Notes under the pieces: model-generated
Told to the model about the DNA's origin: nothing
The model's input: only the letters and a program-made list of their open reading frames with translations
The model's database searches: none
Program-made: the position numbers and the translations under genes
Shown here: piece by piece, positions 49,815-54,300 of the stretch
Layout of the letters: the number at the start of each line of letters is the position of its first letter
How positions within the stretch are numbered: position 1 is the first letter of the stretch
Assembly: GCA_038245255.1 (NCBI GenBank)
Contig: JBBRSQ010000001.1
Location: 2,335 to 66,334 of the forward strand
Source: Patescibacteria group bacterium
GTDB lineage: Bacteria > Patescibacteriota > Patescibacteriia > Patescibacteriales > UBA12465
Length of the DNA: 64,000 bases
Direction: 5' to 3'

Positions 49815-50489
49815 TTATTTAAATAAAACTGGTACTTTTACTGAAGCATCATTTTCTGGCAAACCGGAAGGATTATCTTTAGAAATTACTAAATAACCAC
49901 TAGTCGCCATTGTCAAATATGTTAACTCAGAAGTAAATCTAACCGGCTTTTCAGTCATCCAGTCATCTTGAGCGGTACCGTAATGAGCGACAATTAAATT
50001 ATTATTATTGTCATATAATTTAACTGGCAAAGTCGCTTCAAAAAACCAATTACCAATAGCCGTGCCTTCAATTTTTAAAGGTGAGCTAACAAGTTCGTTT
50101 TGTTTTGGACTAACAACGACTACTTCATTAGAGAAGCTCGCTTGAGGTTCATCTCCTGCCTGAGTGCTAGTCACAATATCCATTTCACATTTTTCCTCCC
50201 AAACACGTAAACACTTCTCTTTTAAATCACACCAAGAATAACCAGCCGAGGCAATACAACCATGTTCGTCTCGGTCATTTCCGACTAAAGATTCTCCCTG
50301 ACTACCAGGGCAAAGTGTTGTTGGCCTGGCTGCCTTTGGATTTCCGTGCTTAGCCCATTGACTATCAGTACAGACCCAATTGTCTTCCTGACTAGTGGCT
50401 CGTAAAACAATTGCACTAAAGATAATAACACCAACTACTCCTAACAATAAATAAGATTTTTTCATAAAATTATTTTTATTAATTACCAA
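49815..50489 (-). CDS. hypothetical secreted Cys-rich protein
   Basis: Signal peptide MKKSYLLLGVVGVIIFSAIV and 8 Cys in the mature part. The start is likely the ATG at 50465; the track start is a TTG. Lies immediately downstream of the promoter at the left inverted-repeat terminus. Confidence 0.55.
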   Translation of the reverse strand: MVINKNNFMKKSYLLLGVVGVIIFSAIVLRATSQEDNWVCTDSQWAKHGNPKAARPTTLCPGSQGESLVGNDRDEHGCIASAGYSWCDLKEKCLRVWEEKCEMDIVTSTQAGDEPQASFSNEVVVVSPKQNELVSSPLKIEGTAIGNWFFEATLPVKLYDNNNNLIVAHYGTAQDDWMTEKPVRFTSELTYLTMATSGYLVISKDNPSGLPENDASVKVPVLFK

Positions 50490-50494
50490 CTTAT

Positions 50495-50849
50495 GGTGTC
50501 TCTATTGTACCAAGTTAGAACCTATTTTCAAAACAAATGATGTCGCACGCGCGAAGCGCGTGGTGAAGCGAAACTAAATCGTACGCTCGGAGAATCGCCC
50601 TGCCACCGCCTCGCTTCGCTCGGCAACTCCGAAAGAAAAAACACTCCTTGCATTTCTGATTTGGCGGGGGTGAAATTTCTTTTGAAAAAGGAAAGGGTGT
50701 TTTTCTTTCGGGGTTCTGCCCGAAAAGATATTCGGACAGGCGGAGTGCAAATGCAAATGTGGAACGCGAGCGGAAAATTTTGCGGAGGACTGGGGGTTTG
50801 GGCGAAAGGACTCCGCAAAATTCTGTTTCGCGTATTTGATTTTGTGGGG
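50495..50849. repeat. left copy of a 355-bp GC-rich inverted repeat (IR-L), likely a structured non-coding element
   Basis: Reverse-complement match to 53816..54170 with only 2 mismatches. About 55-60% GC in a ~35% GC context. Contains internal hairpins (cacgcgc-gaa-gcgcgtg; ttttgcggag...ctccgcaaaa) and a long-range 15-nt complementary pair (ccgaaagaaaaaaca / tgtttttctttcgg). Confidence 0.9.
50504..50537 (-). promoter_or_regulatory. outward-facing extended -10 promoter at the IR-L outer terminus, reading into the Cys-rich secreted protein gene
   Basis: On the minus strand TTGAAA, 16-nt spacer, TGgTACAAT (-10 hexamer at 50509-50504). The predicted transcription start near 50497 is ~32 nt upstream of the ATG at 50465. 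Confidence 0.5.
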
Positions 50850-50906
50850 TGCAGGCAACTAAGAAAAGAAGATACTATCATATCAAAAAACAAGGATTTA
50901 TTTATT

Positions 50907-51536
50907 TTATGATAATTTTATTTTTCCAAAGCTATTTTCTTTAATTTCACTTGATAAATTTAATCTTTCTCTAACTTTATTATTTATTTCTTGAATTGTT
51001 TCTTTTAAATCTCCATTGTTATTGATAAAATCGATAGAAATACCAAGTTCTTTAGCCTGTTTAATGGCTTCATTTTTTTCTAATTCTAATTGCTCTTGTA
51101 TATAATTAAAATCTATAACTCTATCATTTCTTTCAGAAATATCTTTTATTCTTCTATTGAGAATATTCTCTGGAGTTGAATTAACAACGAAAATCGCTTT
51201 CATTTGCTCATAATCTTCATTACGAATATTCCTCACAGAAAAATCTTTACCTTCTACTTCAAAATAAATAAAATGACCATCTAAAATTCTAATTGTATAA
51301 GGATCATTTTTATCTTCCTCATAAATTATTCTAAACATTTCTGGTCTATATTTTCCACGAACATCATCTGGTAGTTTTCTAAATTCTTCTGGAGAAATAT
51401 CACCAGCAAGATGGCACAGAATTGGTAAACCGCGAATTCTAAGAGCCTTATGACTTTCATCATTCAATCTCTCTACAAGTCCTTTAATTACAGAAGTTTT
51501 TCCAGTACCAGGTATTCCAGCAACGTAAATAAACAT
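50907..51536 (-). CDS. P-loop NTPase, predicted (deoxy)nucleotide/nucleoside kinase-like (AAA/adenylate-kinase-like fold)
   Basis: Walker A GIPGTGKTS at the extreme N-terminus. Small 209-aa kinase-like size. Confidence 0.65.
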   Translation of the reverse strand: MFIYVAGIPGTGKTSVIKGLVERLNDESHKALRIRGLPILCHLAGDISPEEFRKLPDDVRGKYRPEMFRIIYEEDKNDPYTIRILDGHFIYFEVEGKDFSVRNIRNEDYEQMKAIFVVNSTPENILNRRIKDISERNDRVIDFNYIQEQLELEKNEAIKQAKELGISIDFINNNGDLKETIQEINNKVRERLNLSSEIKENSFGKIKLS

Positions 51537-51539
51537 AAA

Positions 51540-52112
51540 TTATTGTGTATTAAAAATACATTCCCCTGTTAAATTATTCTGAGTTTTATATTCATCCCAA
51601 AGTTTTAAATACGCTTTATTTATTCTTTCATTTTTTTCTAAACCTAATTCTAAAATAGATTTTTCTATATTATCTTCTTCTCCTTCTATTTCAATAAAAT
51701 AACCAAAAGGTAATTCATCAACAACAAAATCACAATTATTTATATTTTCCAGTCTGTATCTTCTCTTCTCAAAAATATGTTCGATTGGGTATTCTAAAGC
51801 AAAGAACATGCCTCTTATACTATTTATTTTTTCATCATCAACATTCTCTAACAAAAACTCATGCTCATCTCTTATAAATAAGTTCCCCAGATTTTCTTCT
51901 TTCTTATTTTTAACCTTTACTGTTACATAAGCTTTTCTACTATCTTTTTCTATTACTTCTTTTATTCTAGGGAAAATTCCCTTTTCCATATTCTTATATT
52001 CATTCGTAAAAAAACCATATGTTTTTTCAAACTGAAACTTACTTTTATCTTTTACAAATTTGTCAAAAATTTCTTTATTTATTTTTAATTTAATTTCTAT
52101 TTCTTTTTTCAT
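51540..52112 (-). CDS. CYTH-domain (triphosphate tunnel metalloenzyme / class IV adenylate cyclase-like) protein
   Basis: N-terminal EIEIKLKI matches the ExExK CYTH signature. The ~190-aa length fits a single CYTH domain. Confidence 0.55.
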   Translation of the reverse strand: MKKEIEIKLKINKEIFDKFVKDKSKFQFEKTYGFFTNEYKNMEKGIFPRIKEVIEKDSRKAYVTVKVKNKKEENLGNLFIRDEHEFLLENVDDEKINSIRGMFFALEYPIEHIFEKRRYRLENINNCDFVVDELPFGYFIEIEGEEDNIEKSILELGLEKNERINKAYLKLWDEYKTQNNLTGECIFNTQ

Positions 52113-52132
52113 ATTTTAAAAATTAAAAAATA

Positions 52133-52996
52133 TTAATAATAACCTCCAGATTTTTTAGGATAGGGTTTTAAATACTCAGTTCTATCTTTTATTTTTGCTT
52201 CCAAAAAACACCTTCTTCTGTCCCAACAACAAGGACAAGTTCCACAATGAATTTTACTTGATTTTATACAACTTCTTGTTTTTGAAAGATCTAGACCATT
52301 TTCTTCACAATAAGTGATTAAAACATCCTTGTCGTAATAATTACCCAATTCTACTTCAATAGGTAAAGATATATATTGAAAGTTATAATCGTTTAAAATA
52401 TGGCAAGTTTCTAGATTAAGCATTCTCTGCCAAGTAAGAGAACAATGAAAAGAAGTATCGCTAGCAACATGTGCAATAAAAACAGTGTTAACATTCATTC
52501 CTTTATTTTTTAAAGAAATTGCATACTCCATACCCGTAAGAAATATAATAGAGTTTCTAGCTGGATAAGATACATGGGCTGAATGTTCTTTTTTATAAAA
52601 TTTCTTTTTTACTTCTCTTAAATCATCTTTGTATTCCAAGGCGGGTGTATTAACTTTAATTTCTTTTGTTTTGTGGTAAAGTTTTGGAAATTTTTTAGCA
52701 AAAAGTTTATCATAATAATTAATTGATTTTTTTTCCCATTTATAACAATTTTGACCTCTATTTATAAAAAATGGAAACACTTGATAACCAAACTCATTCA
52801 TCAAAATAAAAATATTTGACACCGCATCTGCTCCACCAGACATACAACACACAACAGCACTACCCTTTGGAGGCATTTTTACAACATAATTTCTTTTATC
52901 TATAAAAATTTTATTTAGGACTTTTACAACTTTTAAATCTTCGTTTATTTTATCCTCAATTTTTATTTTGCCTTTATTCTTGATTATTTTGATCAT
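52133..52996 (-). CDS. PP-loop ATPase (adenine-nucleotide alpha-hydrolase), QueC-like with a C-terminal Cys cluster
   Basis: SGGADAVS PP-loop after a ~45-aa N-terminal extension. C-terminal CIKSSKIHCGTCPCCWDRRRC resembles the QueC zinc-binding motif. Confidence 0.6.
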   Translation of the reverse strand: MIKIIKNKGKIKIEDKINEDLKVVKVLNKIFIDKRNYVVKMPPKGSAVVCCMSGGADAVSNIFILMNEFGYQVFPFFINRGQNCYKWEKKSINYYDKLFAKKFPKLYHKTKEIKVNTPALEYKDDLREVKKKFYKKEHSAHVSYPARNSIIFLTGMEYAISLKNKGMNVNTVFIAHVASDTSFHCSLTWQRMLNLETCHILNDYNFQYISLPIEVELGNYYDKDVLITYCEENGLDLSKTRSCIKSSKIHCGTCPCCWDRRRCFLEAKIKDRTEYLKPYPKKSGGYY

Positions 52997-53720
52997 ATTT
53001 TTTATAACTATTAATTATTTTTTTAGCATCCTCAATTGTTTCTTGATAAATATGAGCATCAGTAATCATTCCATCCAAAGAACCGATCCAAATTTTTGTG
53101 TTTAGTTTAGTTTCTAATCTCTTTGCTACCTCTTCAGATAGTAATGCAATCGCAGCAAAATTACCTCCAGCTTTCTGGTAGGCATCTATTGATCGTGCAT
53201 TAAAAATTGTATTTAAATGATAGCCATTCTGATTATCAATTTTAATTAATCTGAATTGAATAGTTGTAATACAGGGCAGATAATCATCTTTGGGTCTTTC
53301 AAGAGTTCTTTCATAATCTTCTTTTCTGACAAAGCTCATTATAGCTTTTTTGCTTTCTGGTATTTCTGCAAGCCTATCCACCACAAAATCAAGCATTTTC
53401 CATTCTTTGATTCTTGCATAATAGCTTTGACTTCCATCTGAGAATGATGGAACAATATCAAAGTCATGCATAATTTCTTTATTAAAAGTTAAATCAATAA
53501 TTGCATCTATGTTTTCTTTATCCCCATATCGACTAAGCAATTGATCTGGATAAATTTGGGAGTTTGATCTAACTCTAATATTTTGAAGACATAATCTATT
53601 TCTGCCTTCATCAGAAGTTATGTTCCCATTTTTTAAAATTACTTCTACTAAACTTAACCAGGTACTCCCCAATACTTCACCATAAATCAAAAGGCCAAAA
53701 GGCTCTATTTTTATGTACAT
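52974..53720 (-). CDS. thymidylate-synthase-fold enzyme (ThyA-like pyrimidine C5 methylase/hydroxymethylase homolog)
   Basis: SKKAIMSFV, YLPCITTIQFRL and ARSIDAYQKAGGNFAAIALL align to the ThyA SRRIIVSAW, LAPCHAFFQFYV and [20 protein letters not shown] motifs. The catalytic Cys and the uracil-specifying Asn are retained. Confidence 0.7.
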   Translation of the reverse strand: MYIKIEPFGLLIYGEVLGSTWLSLVEVILKNGNITSDEGRNRLCLQNIRVRSNSQIYPDQLLSRYGDKENIDAIIDLTFNKEIMHDFDIVPSFSDGSQSYYARIKEWKMLDFVVDRLAEIPESKKAIMSFVRKEDYERTLERPKDDYLPCITTIQFRLIKIDNQNGYHLNTIFNARSIDAYQKAGGNFAAIALLSEEVAKRLETKLNTKIWIGSLDGMITDAHIYQETIEDAKKIINSYKKYDQNNQE

Positions 53721-53764
53721 ACAATGTTTTTATGTTAAAAATTTTAATAATTTAAACTAACTTC

Positions 53765-53791
53765 AATATACCATATTTTTAAAAAATCCAA
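53765..53791 (-). promoter_or_regulatory. extended -10 promoter for the four-gene cassette operon
   Basis: On the minus strand TTGGAT, then TGgTATATT (53773-53765). Lies ~45 nt upstream of the ATG at 53720, just inside IR-R. Confidence 0.45.
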
Positions 53792-53815
53792 AAATATAAT
53801 TTGAAATCCTATTCG

Positions 53816-54170
53816 CCCCACAAAATCAAATACGCGAAACAGAATTTTGCGGAGTCCTTTCGCCCAAACCCCCAGTCCTCCGCAAAATTTTCCGCTCGCG
53901 TTCCACATTTGCATTTGCACTCCGCCTGTCCGAATATCTATTCGGGCAGAACCCCGAAAGAAAAACACCCTTTCCTTTTTCAAAAGAAATTTCACCCCCG
54001 CCAAATCAGAAATGCAAGGAGTGTTTTTTCTTTCGGGGTTGCCGAGCGAAGCGAGGCGGTGGCAGGGCGATTCTCCGAGCGTACGATTTAGTTTCGCTTC
54101 ACCACGCGCTTCGCGCGTGCGACATCATTTGTTTTGAAAATAGGTTCTAACTTGGTACAATAGAGACACC
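53816..54170. repeat. right copy of the 355-bp GC-rich inverted repeat (IR-R)
   Basis: Reverse complement of 50495..50849 with 2 mismatches. An outward-facing TTGAAA-N16-TGgTACAAT promoter sits at 54134..54161 on the + strand. Confidence 0.9.
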
Positions 54171-54215
54171 AGAAACGAACTAGACGGCTTTTTCAAAGCC
54201 GTCTAGTTCGTTTCT
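54171..54215. repeat. 45-bp perfect palindrome (21-bp arms, 3-nt loop) between IR-R and the tRNA-Leu 3' end; likely a bidirectional terminator or recombination site
   Basis: agaaacgaactagacggcttt-ttc-aaagccgtctagttcgtttct. Exact complementarity over 21 bp. Shares its last nucleotide with the tRNA 3' end. Confidence 0.85.
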
Positions 54216-54300
54216 GGTGCCCGAGGGGGGATTTGAACCCCCATGGGATTTCTCCCGCAGCGTTCTGAACACTGCGTGTCTACCGTTTCACCACCCGTGC
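54215..54300 (-). tRNA. tRNA-Leu (anticodon CAG), type II with a long variable arm, CCA encoded
   Basis: Minus strand reads GCACGGGTGGTGAAACGGTAGACACGCAGTGTTCAGAACGCTGCGGGAGAAATCCCATGGGGGTTCAAATCCCCCCTCGGGCACCA. Folds into a cloverleaf with a D-arm, anticodon loop TTCAGAA, variable stem CGGGA/TCCC, T-arm GGGGGTTCAAATCCCCC and a 7-bp acceptor stem with one A-G mismatch. Confidence 0.85.

Follow-up and report, generated by a model that had tools for sequence, protein, structure and literature searches.

The window analysed here is a 64,000-nucleotide stretch of contig JBBRSQ010000001.1 from a Patescibacteria group bacterium (GenBank assembly GCA_038245255.1). At the 3' end of its tRNA-Leu(CAG) gene lies an island of about 3.7 kb, positions 50491 to 54214, in which two long repeats, here called arms, face each other across four co-directional cargo genes (minus strand, 50907 to 53720). 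In order along the window, the features are:

50491-50849, plus strand: arm 1, tRNA-distal, with the G-rich putative sense strand on plus; its 5' end borders the host DNA that precedes a Gmad2-like gene
50907-51536, minus strand: P-loop kinase-like cargo gene
51540-52112, minus strand: CYTH-like cargo gene, its match below the Pfam cut-off
52133-52996, minus strand: QueC-like cargo gene
52974-53720, minus strand: ThyA-like cargo gene
53816-54174, minus strand: arm 2, tRNA-proximal, with the putative sense strand on minus; the first cargo gene begins 95 nt beyond its 3' end
54167-54219, no strand: palindromic scar reaching from the 3' end of the tRNA to where the element starts: CACCA and 20 nt, then a 4-nt centre, then those 20 nt inverted and TGGTG
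54215-54300, minus strand: tRNA-Leu(CAG), the integration target, oriented like arm 2 and found by both Rfam and ARAGORN

The arms form an inverted pair of 359 nt each, 99% complementary and spaced 2966 nt apart, with three mismatches, at 50493, 50628 and 50725. The original prediction, made from the letters of this DNA and its open reading frames, had described a repeat in two copies, which is real, but had not stated that the copies are inverted. The 55-60% GC that it gave for the repeat is too high, the arm having 48.2% GC (51% in its core), the flanks 36% and the cargo 26.9%; the window average is 35.1%. That prediction was silent on the tRNA gene that adjoins the repeat and on the mobile-island context. 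The arm is very unlikely to be an assembly artefact: an independent Logan assembly is interrupted in both arms at a depth of exactly 30 nt, which is what a true repeat would produce, and the arm-cargo junction is present in independent assemblies from other samples. PADLOC, run on the cargo, returned no known defence system.

Syntenic relatives that share BipA, RNase HII, tRNA-Leu(CAG), Gmad2 and CysRS have tRNA-Leu, tRNA-Val and Gmad2 within 190 nt and carry no island; at loci L255 and L256 synteny is kept while the 3.7-kb block is absent. Because these relatives are without the whole block, it is an insertion. For the closest relative by Gmad2 protein, at 94% identity, no contig is on record. 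The two junctions of the island, attL and attR in form, share a core, with sequence ending in GGGCACCA followed by GAAAC at the tRNA and sequence ending in GAGACACCA followed by TAAGTT at the distal end.

In the half of the palindromic scar that adjoins the element, the sequence corresponds to the last codons (KKPLSSVLV) of genes for large serine recombinases (LSRs) at other loci, and the 64-kb window itself contains no LSR gene. The window copy is thus best read as an LSR-less relic, from which the LSR gene appears to have been deleted, leaving the palindromic scar; the arms are relics on account of that deletion. We class the copy as a relic of an LSR-type tRNA island because, with the empty site established here, an LSR gene at the island end is seen only in the homologous loci described below.

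Modules and conserved helices within the arm

Several modules can be distinguished within the arm, with coordinates as follows:

50494-50534, minus strand: 5' module of arm 1, core TGGTG plus outward promoter-like site, kept across sub-families
50531-50526 (-35) and 50509-50504 (-10), minus strand: promoter-like site of arm 1, TTGAAA-16 nt-TGgTACAAT, aimed at the Gmad2-like gene (ATG at 50468)
54131-54171, plus strand: 5' module of arm 2, with the same promoter-like site at 54134-54161, aimed into the palindromic scar and, in antisense, tRNA-Leu
50546-50562, plus strand: hairpin P0, CACGCGC-GAA-GCGCGTG, which most homologues have, with variants
50627-50713, plus strand: long helix P1, in which 50627-50646 pairs with 50695-50713
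50647-50694, plus strand: apical block within P1, the most conserved block, containing TTGGCGGGGGTGAAATTT
50716-50739, plus strand: hairpin P3, CUGCCCGAA...UUCGGACAG, with compensatory changes in five pairs, in few sequences
50774-50822, plus strand: hairpin H1, with a G-rich loop and a U-rich tail at 50823-50849; terminator-like

To judge from its sequence, the 5' portion of the arm, some 45 nt, is a recombination core with an outward promoter-like site and not folded RNA. The site is among the top scorers in both arms, with 10 of 12 matches plus the TG extension, and is conserved in the family: TATAAT or TACAAT occurs in 64 of 97 homologous contexts, the best site is TG-extended in 59 of the 97, and the -10 box lies 6-10 nt inside the element end. 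In the window, the site of arm 1 now points into the host's Gmad2-like gene. No convincing sense-strand promoter was found at the 5' end of the element.

Most of what had been predicted of the fold can be placed. Hairpin P0 and the 10-bp stem ttttgcggag...ctccgcaaaa are both present, the latter at 50778-50787 and 50811-50820 within H1. The predicted long-range pair, ccgaaagaaaaaaca with tgtttttctttcgg, also exists (50629-50643 with 50698-50711, within P1), but its sides are 15 and 14 nt long with a 1-nt bulge, not an even 15, and the gap is 54 nt. The H1 region is flanked by A and T tracts on both sides; a second hairpin, H2, is carried by many homologues and is missing from the window copy. 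Both strands of the arm fold better than dinucleotide shuffles, with z = -4.0 for the sense and -6.2 for the antisense strand, and the better antisense score counts against a sense-RNA reading.

Homologues show compensatory changes in these helices. In P1, 94% of cells are paired, and three adjacent pairs switch from CAC/GUG to UGU/ACA in 16 of 69 sequences, changes that may nonetheless stem from only a few evolutionary events. H1 shows compensatory double changes in 10 of its 11 pairs around a conserved loop. Taken over P1 and the remaining helices tested, covariation scores 0.162; shuffles give 0.111 (none of 500 reaches the observed value) and slid partners 0.058-0.078, in a set of related sequences all gathered by one exact 18-mer. 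Part of the apical block's invariance is built in, since the exact 18-mer used to fetch every locus comes from it. Some sequences that break the P1 covariation (L015 and L240) look like recombinants. Both internal differences between the two arms of the window are structure-neutral: at 50628 one arm has U.G in P1 where the other has C-G, and the mismatch at 50725 falls in the loop of P3.

The RNAalifold consensus of the core ignores the long helix and instead pairs CACUCCU with the invariant GGGGGUG. We set that pairing aside in favor of the long helix because true double changes are seen in the latter, although the two may alternate. On the sequence evidence, then, helices appear to be kept by compensatory substitutions above both the shuffled and the slid controls, a generic feature of structured RNAs. 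The conserved U.G pairs favor the G-rich strand as the putative sense strand of a predicted transcript.

Searches against known families

Rfam 15, run over the whole window at gathering thresholds, finds tRNA-Leu only, and the arm alone, searched at E<=10, returns only chance-level matches to miRNA-type hairpins far below threshold. Across 16 full-length homologous loci the element is likewise unmatched, while tRNAs and one group I intron are found outside it, so that the search of these loci can be said to have worked. The models without a match at gathering score in the element include RNase P, tmRNA, SRP, 6S, group I and II introns, GOLLD, ROOL and HEARO, and ARAGORN, applied to the window for tmRNA, also reports tRNA-Leu only. 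A TTCGAA motif in the 5' module was considered as tRNA-like and rejected, its spacing being unlike that of a T-arm. A group I intron was rejected as well: the Intron_gpI model picks up the intron in the L121 tRNA and leaves the neighbouring element unmatched, and elements lie downstream of complete tRNAs and not inside them. Group I introns described from Patescibacteria tRNAs are located in the anticodon loop and recognised by standard models (PMC13011429), and for both reasons are unrelated to the element.

All six frames of the arm are almost free of stop codons, and the ORF list bears out the report of ORFs of 83-121 aa on both strands of both copies. These internal ORFs have no Pfam match, and none was found as an exact sequence in the protein collection. 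A six-frame translation search did give E-values down to 7e-9, but only against the C-terminal tails of three LSRs, whose ORFs run stop-free into homologous DNA in different frames and with frameshifts. Single-nucleotide indels occur inside the most conserved block of homologues, so that neither a single frame nor indels in threes mark the arm as coding. We read the LSR-tail matches as read-through of non-coding DNA, with no conserved protein behind them. It was through these tails, reached by the six-frame query, that the homologous loci came to light.

Searches for the element in viruses and plasmids returned nothing, either from IMG/VR with four conserved words or by blastn against GenBank phages and PLSDB plasmids. 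The unit begins with TGGTGTCTC and finishes with TTTTGTGGGG, and neither end is an inverted copy of the other, so the unit has no terminal inverted repeats of its own of the MITE or transposon kind, and in place of a fixed-length target duplication the flanks in the window share only the CACCA core. The Rfam, ORF and compensatory-change results together support what the original prediction had proposed: a structured RNA or DNA element of unknown family, with spurious internal ORFs. The compensatory changes fall in the long helix and the 3' hairpin.

A family of elements in CPR genomes

Homologues occur at more than 200 loci, itself a lower bound, the 18-mer from the core being present at no fewer than 120 metagenome loci and at least 119 genome loci. 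Among the latter, as listed, about 80 show extended homology, and these bear the label CPR/Patescibacteria or just "bacterium", apart from two contigs binned elsewhere. The 39 remaining genome matches, almost all non-CPR and without extended homology, were treated as chance 18-mer matches. Elements in the family are 360-450 nt long (360-500 nt where the figure is given for the repeat), and core identity between loci is 75-97%.

Flanking genes are almost never common to different loci, and clustering of 1309 flanking ORFs yielded no shared family besides ORFs that overlap the element and LSRs. Convergent pairs of arms occur in 15 loci, the window and 14 others, with arm identity within a locus of 75-100% where measured, mostly 93-100%. 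The cargo between them includes HinP1I, EcoRV and type I restriction-modification, AAA+/VWA proteins and peptidases. Fifteen copies have at least 6 kb of downstream sequence with no partner arm, and 75 of the 97 copies with at least 2.3 kb upstream lack both an LSR and an adjacent tRNA; many copies are for that reason outside the tRNA/LSR context, and are distal arms, solo copies or contexts outside the model proposed below.

LSR islands and the recombination core

The order of a complete island is tRNA, LSR, element pointing inward, cargo, second element pointing inward, host. About 22 loci read as a tRNA, an LSR directed back toward it, and an element directed away; in about seven distinct loci the LSR reads into the element, and an LSR stands beside the att junction in about 29 homologous loci. 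The matched LSR domains are Resolvase, Recombinase and Zn_ribbon_recom. An IS110-family transposase stands beside the element only in L010 and L011.

Tails of the LSR genes enter either the antisense of a tRNA or the element, diverging right after a common core. In its first 3-9 nt the element is the reverse complement of the 3' end of the tRNA, the pairs being TGGTG/CACCA, TGGCGG/CCGCCA, GTGG/CCAC and AGCTCC/GGAGCT. Element ends co-vary with the 3' end of the adjacent tRNA, which points to site-specific recombination and not to transposition. L245 displays the complete arrangement: after a tRNA-Ala ending in CAC comes the LSR, enclosed by a 133-nt inverted repeat of its own 3' end whose copies are 100% identical, then the cargo between 369-nt arms that are 99.7% identical, and finally CAC and host DNA, so that CAC stands at both ends of the island. 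At L190, where the target is tRNA-Leu(CAG), the tRNA-proximal part of that layout is present, with a like inverted repeat flanking the LSR.

A proposed model and its alternatives

The element is a new family within a known kind of mobile island. We consider it probable that what remains in the window is a decayed integrative island, one of a CPR-wide family moved by LSRs, with the two copies as its inverted arms, and that each arm is modular, combining att core, outward promoter and structured sense transcript. Its first 3-9 nt would be the recombination core and the next 40 nt or so an outward promoter, predicted to be of the sigma-70 type, that in intact islands would face the LSR gene. The remaining 300-400 nt or so would fold into P0, P1 with its conserved apex, P3, and terminator-like hairpins, one or two in number, whose G-rich loops are conserved, and the folded region would read the G-rich strand toward the cargo. 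In an intact island, one arm would lie upstream of the LSR gene and supply its promoter. In the excised circle that this layout implies, and at loci where the LSR reads into the element, the other arm would follow the LSR directly, on the far side of the att core, and could serve as its structured 3' UTR and terminator. By analogy with lambda sib and int, the folded region may regulate the LSR according to integration state, and the hairpins may insulate the variable cargo. The model gives no account of the inverted duplication of the arm. It also has to reckon with LSRs not being known to require long accessory sequences.

A possible though unlikely alternative is that the arm forms a gene in its own right and encodes a structured RNA acting in trans, a passenger or helper comparable to GOLLD and ROOL, its position at the island end being secondary. 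The multi-domain fold of 300-400 nt with compensated helices and conserved loops would suit such a gene, as would terminator-like 3' hairpins with U-rich tails and a core that remains 75-97% identical across very distant CPR lineages. The element, moreover, often follows closely behind a tRNA and shares its orientation, so that the two could be co-transcribed. However, it has no recognisable sense-strand promoter of its own, its 5' end coincides to the nucleotide with the recombination core and the outward promoter-like site, a trans-acting gene has no need of inverted pairs around cargo, and the GOLLD and ROOL models of Rfam give no match.

We judge distinctly unlikely a new class of dual-purpose module, in which folded RNA or single-stranded DNA is fused to the att core and outward promoter. 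Such a module would sense or set the island's integration state, for instance through state-dependent control of the LSR by way of its 3' UTR, or its arms would anneal on an incoming strand to rebuild the att site and promoter after natural transformation, and the whole could then serve CPR bacteria as an exchange chassis for restriction-modification and other accessory cassettes.

That the structure acts purely as single-stranded DNA seems quite improbable. It would then be a single-strand origin or single-strand promoter, such as rolling-circle plasmids and the leading regions of conjugative plasmids have, or a panhandle of annealed arms that rebuilds a duplex att site and promoter after uptake. 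CPR bacteria commonly encode DNA-uptake machinery, a point in favor of this reading, and inverted copies mean that each strand bears one "sense" copy. No conserved partner protein was found besides the LSR, and P1 encloses promoter-like hexamers, TTGCAT-17 nt-TGAAAT, in a reading made by eye that fails the criteria of our scan. On the other side, the helices use G.U pairs, with a conserved U.G in P1 and four G.U in the apical stem, which would be weak as G.T; no Rep, relaxase or primase is consistently nearby, and there is no direct sign of a single-stranded stage.

Very little probability attaches to the view that the arms are transposon terminal inverted repeats, or two MITE-like elements, served by a transposase elsewhere and folding only incidentally. 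Long, near-identical inverted repeats around varying cargo would fit it, as would the frequent breaking of contigs at the element, typical of multi-copy repeats, and the IS110-family neighbours at two loci. It founders on the single unit, which lacks terminal inverted repeats, on flanks in the window that show no target-site duplication beyond CACCA, on the consistent presence of LSRs and not of transposases, on the co-variation of element ends with tRNA 3' ends, and on compensatory changes that indicate selection on folding. A protein-coding fragment or an assembly artefact is scarcely credible: the ORFs through the repeat and the six-frame protein matches invite that view, but those matches are confined to LSR read-through in different frames, the ORFs have no Pfam match and no exact counterpart in the protein collection, 1-nt indels interrupt the core, independent assemblies hold the arm-cargo junction, and the paired layout recurs in 14 other loci.

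Comparison with known systems

For the decayed LSR island that we favor, a functional parallel may be sib of phage lambda, a structured RNA site just beyond attP and downstream of int. In both, a folded element lies just downstream of the recombinase across the att core, so that it would belong to the recombinase transcript in one state and be cut off from it by integration in the other, and P1, at about 20 bp or more, would present an RNase III-type duplex; the comparison draws on established knowledge of lambda and on the architecture of our loci. The element differs in that its recombinase is an LSR and not a tyrosine integrase, in having 300-450 nt and several domains where sib is one hairpin, and in its inverted duplication and outward promoter-like site; cleavage and regulation are attributed to it by analogy only.

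Junction promoters are familiar from other elements. The circular form of Tn4451 creates the tnpX promoter, and insertion sequences have outward Pout promoters. Like these, the arm places a near-consensus, TG-extended -10 facing across the junction, at the LSR or, in the window, at a host gene. The promoter of Tn4451 is assembled by circularisation, whereas the putative promoter here is complete within a 360-500-nt arm that also contains a folded domain.

With classical tRNA islands and tycheposons, the present islands share insertion at tRNA 3' ends, accessory or defence cargo, recombinase-less versions and hot-spot tRNAs. Such islands, among them the tycheposons of Prochlorococcus, have direct repeats of the tRNA end as boundaries and are not known to carry conserved long inverted structured arms, and the host range here is CPR. 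GOLLD and ROOL are generally known as large structured RNAs on mobile elements, often beside tRNA genes, a resemblance tempered by the lack of any Rfam match and by the smaller size, island-boundary position and inverted pairing of our element. The yeast 2-micron plasmid, in which large inverted repeats bearing the recombinase site part two unique segments, offers a parallel of layout: in the circle that we infer, two segments (LSR and cargo) would be split by inverted copies of about 500 nt that hold the core, each consisting of the LSR 3' end plus the element, although the recombinase family, the host and perhaps the presence of a replication origin differ. The bridge (seek) RNAs of IS110/IS1111 are likewise structured RNAs at an element end beside a recombinase. 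Here, however, that recombinase is an LSR, IS110 adjoins the element at L010 and L011 alone, and no loop complementary to the target co-varies with the tRNA.

Meaning for CPR mobile elements

The genomes of CPR/Patescibacteria are very small, and descriptions of their mobile elements are poor. The loci examined here define a recurrent island layout, with tRNA, LSR and a structured arm on either side of cargo, together with a non-coding family, conserved and 360-450 nt long, that Rfam lacks. The 18-mer of its core is a handle for finding hundreds of islands with restriction-modification and other accessory genes. Were the folded body to control the recombinase or the cargo, it would add a new RNA-level layer to serine-recombinase elements, whose enzymes have practical appeal for genome engineering. 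Should the body be no more than a terminator or insulator, the arms are still useful markers of horizontal transfer across the whole CPR radiation.

Inverted repeat arms beside a tRNA-Leu gene

The repeat forms two arms of an island inserted between a tRNA gene and a Gmad2-domain gene, and brackets four genes.

Features of the island and its borders
50491-50849, + strand: arm 1 of the inverted repeat, 359 nt, 99% complementary to arm 2
50907-53720, - strand: four co-directional inter-arm genes (ThyA-like; QueC-like; CYTH-like; P-loop kinase-like/adenylate-kinase-like), 27% GC
53816-54174, - strand: arm 2 of the inverted repeat, 359 nt, 2966 nt from arm 1
54215-54300, - strand: tRNA-Leu(CAG), directly outside arm 2
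Directly outside arm 1: start of the Gmad2-domain gene

The three mismatches between the arms fall at 50493, the extreme edge of the repeat, at 50628, where U.G becomes C-G within a long helix (P1), and at 50725, within a hairpin loop. Because the second is a U.G/C-G swap and the third a loop position, the fold is the same in both arms. GC content is 48% in the arm (51% without the 5' ~50 nt), below the 55-60% of the original prediction, against 35% for the window, 36% for the flanks and 27% for the inter-arm DNA. The hairpins listed in that prediction were all located, and both strands of the arm fold better than shuffled controls.

The cargo genes give weak matches to their respective families, the Pfam match of the CYTH-like gene lying under the curated cut-off, and none of the PADLOC defence systems fits the operon, which has the look of a cassette for nucleotide or base modification.

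A non-coding element outside known RNA families

A search of Rfam 15 returned nothing for the arm, in line with the original prediction, which also held the internal open reading frames to be spurious. These frames have no Pfam match and are not present in the protein collection. When the six-frame translation was used as a protein query, the sole matches were the C-terminal tails of three large serine recombinases (LSRs; P0004, P0005 and P0006), whose frames are stop-free before the junction and continue into arm-homologous DNA; these matches yielded the first homologous loci. Read-through occurs in different frames, with a frameshift in one case, and 1-nt indels are present within the most conserved block of the element, which together exclude a conserved protein. 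Each of the six frames (50491-50900) contains merely one to three stop codons, more open than we expected at 48% GC; this openness may simply aid recombinase read-through.

Family size and host range

The core 18-mer TTGGCGGGGGTGAAATTT occurs in at least 120 metagenome stretches, chiefly of groundwater, sediment and lake origin, and in at least 119 stretches of species-representative genomes. Of the genome loci listed, about 80 show homology beyond the 18-mer (blastn, whole arm), nearly all of them in Patescibacteria MAGs, with hosts spanning Levybacteria and Gottesmanbacteria through Parcubacteria/Paceibacterota to Saccharibacteria; two come from short or partial contigs that were assigned to Nitrospirota and Flavobacteriales bins. 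For the remaining 39 loci, which belong almost entirely to other phyla, that search detected no homology beyond the 18-mer, and their number is about the chance expectation for an 18-mer in 596 Gb. Searches for the element in IMG/VR, GenBank phages and PLSDB plasmids returned nothing. Between loci, window-arm positions ~1-253 are recognisable, with core identity of 75-97%; in the 3' part the hairpins are kept and the stem sequences are not.

Mobility and insertion at tRNA-Leu

Flanking genes are almost never common to different loci. Convergent pairs of elements, 1.7-11 kb apart, occur at fifteen loci including the window, and another fifteen copies lack a partner although 6 kb or more of downstream sequence follows them. 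Arms of measured pairs span 270-510 nt (those cut by contig ends are shorter), with within-locus identity mostly 93-100% and lower values of 87% at L083 and 76% at L127. Cargo varies by locus: HinP1I restriction-modification (L036), EcoRV restriction-modification (L114), a type I restriction-modification system with a PIN protein (L121), giant AAA+/VWA proteins (L048) or peptidases (L077), among others. For seven of the nine evaluable pairs, cargo transcription is directed away from the tRNA-proximal arm.

Relatives of the window share the gene order BipA, RNase HII, tRNA-Leu(CAG), Gmad2, CysRS. In these relatives (Gmad2 66% identical), tRNA-Leu, tRNA-Val(CAC) and Gmad2 fall inside 190 nt, and both arms and cargo are absent. 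An independent Logan assembly from another run contains a 3026-nt contig that consists of the unique cargo with exactly 30 nt from each arm, the break expected at a true repeat.

Several further observations concern these sites. Compared with window positions 50469-54214, L255:5815-6000 and L256:1986-2171 place tRNA-Val(CAC) 5 nt past tRNA-Leu(CAG) and directly before Gmad2. No tRNA-Val occurs anywhere in the 64-kb window, so the gene was lost or displaced at the island site. At L253, other small insertions lie between the two tRNA genes, suggesting that this locus is an insertion hot spot. An IS110-family transposase (DEDD_Tnp_IS110 plus Transposase_20) abuts the 3' end of the element on the opposite strand at L010:11820-12893 and L011:2713-3786, and L013 diverges from L010 at about this junction; the adjacency could mark the element as an IS110 target or could be chance. 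At L121:2018-2267, a group I intron scoring 73 bits in Rfam directly precedes the 3'-end sequence of the tRNA that stands before the element, and apparently interrupts that tRNA gene. Pairs of truncated element cores that overlap head to head in short fold-back palindromes (L233:24-119, L020:3-135, L064:3009-3182, L100:148-331, L168:2347-2550) suggest rearrangement at the long helix.

Linkage to large serine recombinases and tRNA 3' ends

The element has a sharply defined 5' end in over 60 contexts. Three types of sequence lie upstream: a tRNA 3' end with a palindromic hairpin after it; the 3' end of an LSR coding sequence, as an entire gene reading in or as a 30-160-nt fragment; and unrelated DNA. 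Most copies with long upstream sequence adjoin neither an LSR nor a tRNA. About 22 loci on the tRNA/LSR/element map have a tRNA gene, an LSR gene pointing back toward it and an element pointing away; at about seven distinct loci the LSR is co-oriented with the element and reads into it.

In each sub-family, the first 3-9 nt of the element are the reverse complement of the adjoining tRNA 3' end (TGGTG with CACCA, TGGCGG with CCGCCA, GTGG with CCAC, AGCTCC with GGAGCT). The homologous LSRs of L033 and L066 share their sequence through KKPLSSVLV and then diverge, one into tRNA antisense and the other into the element. Stop codons are missing before the recombination (att) core in P0004, P0005, P0006 and the reading frames of L033, L056, L037, L055 and L066. 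The C-terminal 11-80 residues of these LSRs are therefore encoded by the joined DNA, antisense tRNA or element, and vary with integration state.

The complete island L245 starts at tRNA-Ala (...CAC) and ends with CAC plus host DNA; its LSR gene is flanked by a 100% identical 133-nt inverted repeat of the LSR 3' end (577-709 / 2195-2327), and its cargo by 369-nt element arms that are 99.7% identical. L190, at tRNA-Leu(CAG), preserves the tRNA-proximal part of this layout with the same kind of LSR-flanking repeat. A perfect inverted copy of the LSR's own 3' end thus brackets the gene in L245, L190 and L085 (1-159 / 1737-1895), so a transcript from an outward promoter would have the reverse complement of the mRNA 3' end in its 5' UTR.

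No LSR gene occurs in the window. A 53-nt palindrome with a 4-nt centre runs from the tRNA CACCA to the element TGGTG, and its element-side half, AAGCCGTCTAGTTCGTTTC, resembles the final LSR codons in L066. Most simply, the LSR gene would have been lost through a deletion between the two inverted copies of its 3' end.

An outward promoter-like site and a conserved folded body

Both window arms carry TTGAAA-16 nt-TGgTACAAT on the antisense strand, among the top-scoring sigma-70-type matches and ending 7 nt from the core. TATAAT or TACAAT occupies this position in 64 of 97 contexts, the best site has a TG extension in 59 of 97, and the site persists in sub-families whose surrounding sequence differs. 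Within intact islands it faces the LSR gene, 120-335 nt away; in the window it points from arm 1 to the Gmad2 gene and from arm 2 to the scar and antisense tRNA. No clear promoter was found on the sense strand of the element.

Helix P1 (50627-50646 with 50695-50713) is 94% paired across 69 sequences. Three neighbouring pairs swap jointly from CAC/GUG to UGU/ACA in 16 of these and a fourth changes from C-G to A-U in seven, counts of related sequences rather than of events. The covariation score is 0.162, compared with 0.111 for shuffles and at most 0.078 for slid partners; RNAalifold gives an alternative pairing for part of P1. A U.G pair within the helix, retained in 54 of 69 sequences, favours the G-rich strand, provided the molecule is RNA. 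In hairpin H1, ten of eleven predicted pairs have undergone double changes, such as U-A to A-U or C-G in 13 of 28 sequences, around the constant loop UUUUYUGGGG.AAAGGA. Many homologues have a second hairpin, H2, with stems unrelated between loci and the constant loop AGGAGGGGUYUGGGGAGGAAU. The invariance of the apical block arises partly because it was the search word. U-rich tails follow both H1 and H2, giving the hairpins the appearance of terminators whose conserved loops are unusually large.

Proposed working of the element

The analysis places the arms in an inserted island of a family associated with LSRs, and shows in them a recombination core as well as a promoter-like site and helices, both conserved. 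That they are the arms of a mobile LSR-type island is very probable. Once excised, the island would form a circle whose LSR and cargo segments are kept apart by two inverted copies of LSR 3' end, core and element. Integration through one copy would yield tRNA, inward-facing LSR, element, cargo, convergent element and host DNA; integration through the other, or inversion, would yield the class with the LSR reading into the element.

Each arm might then have two jobs. Its outward promoter would drive the LSR from one side, and on the other its folded body, across the att core from the LSR 3' end, would serve as LSR 3' UTR and terminator; the terminator-like hairpins could also insulate the cargo. 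Whether the folded part works as a sense RNA we regard as evenly balanced. Its position relative to the LSR is that of lambda sib relative to int, and RNase III could plausibly cut the long P1 duplex, which leads us to propose state-dependent control of the recombinase; a specifically sib-like mechanism is rather unlikely.

Islands that target tRNA genes, with a recombinase at one end, variable defence cargo and recombinase-less relics, are a known type. A full-text literature search found no description of a conserved structured arm of 360-450 nt fused to the att core, with an outward promoter and often in an inverted pair, and Rfam contains no such arm. The island is a known kind of mobile element, here holding a new non-coding family.
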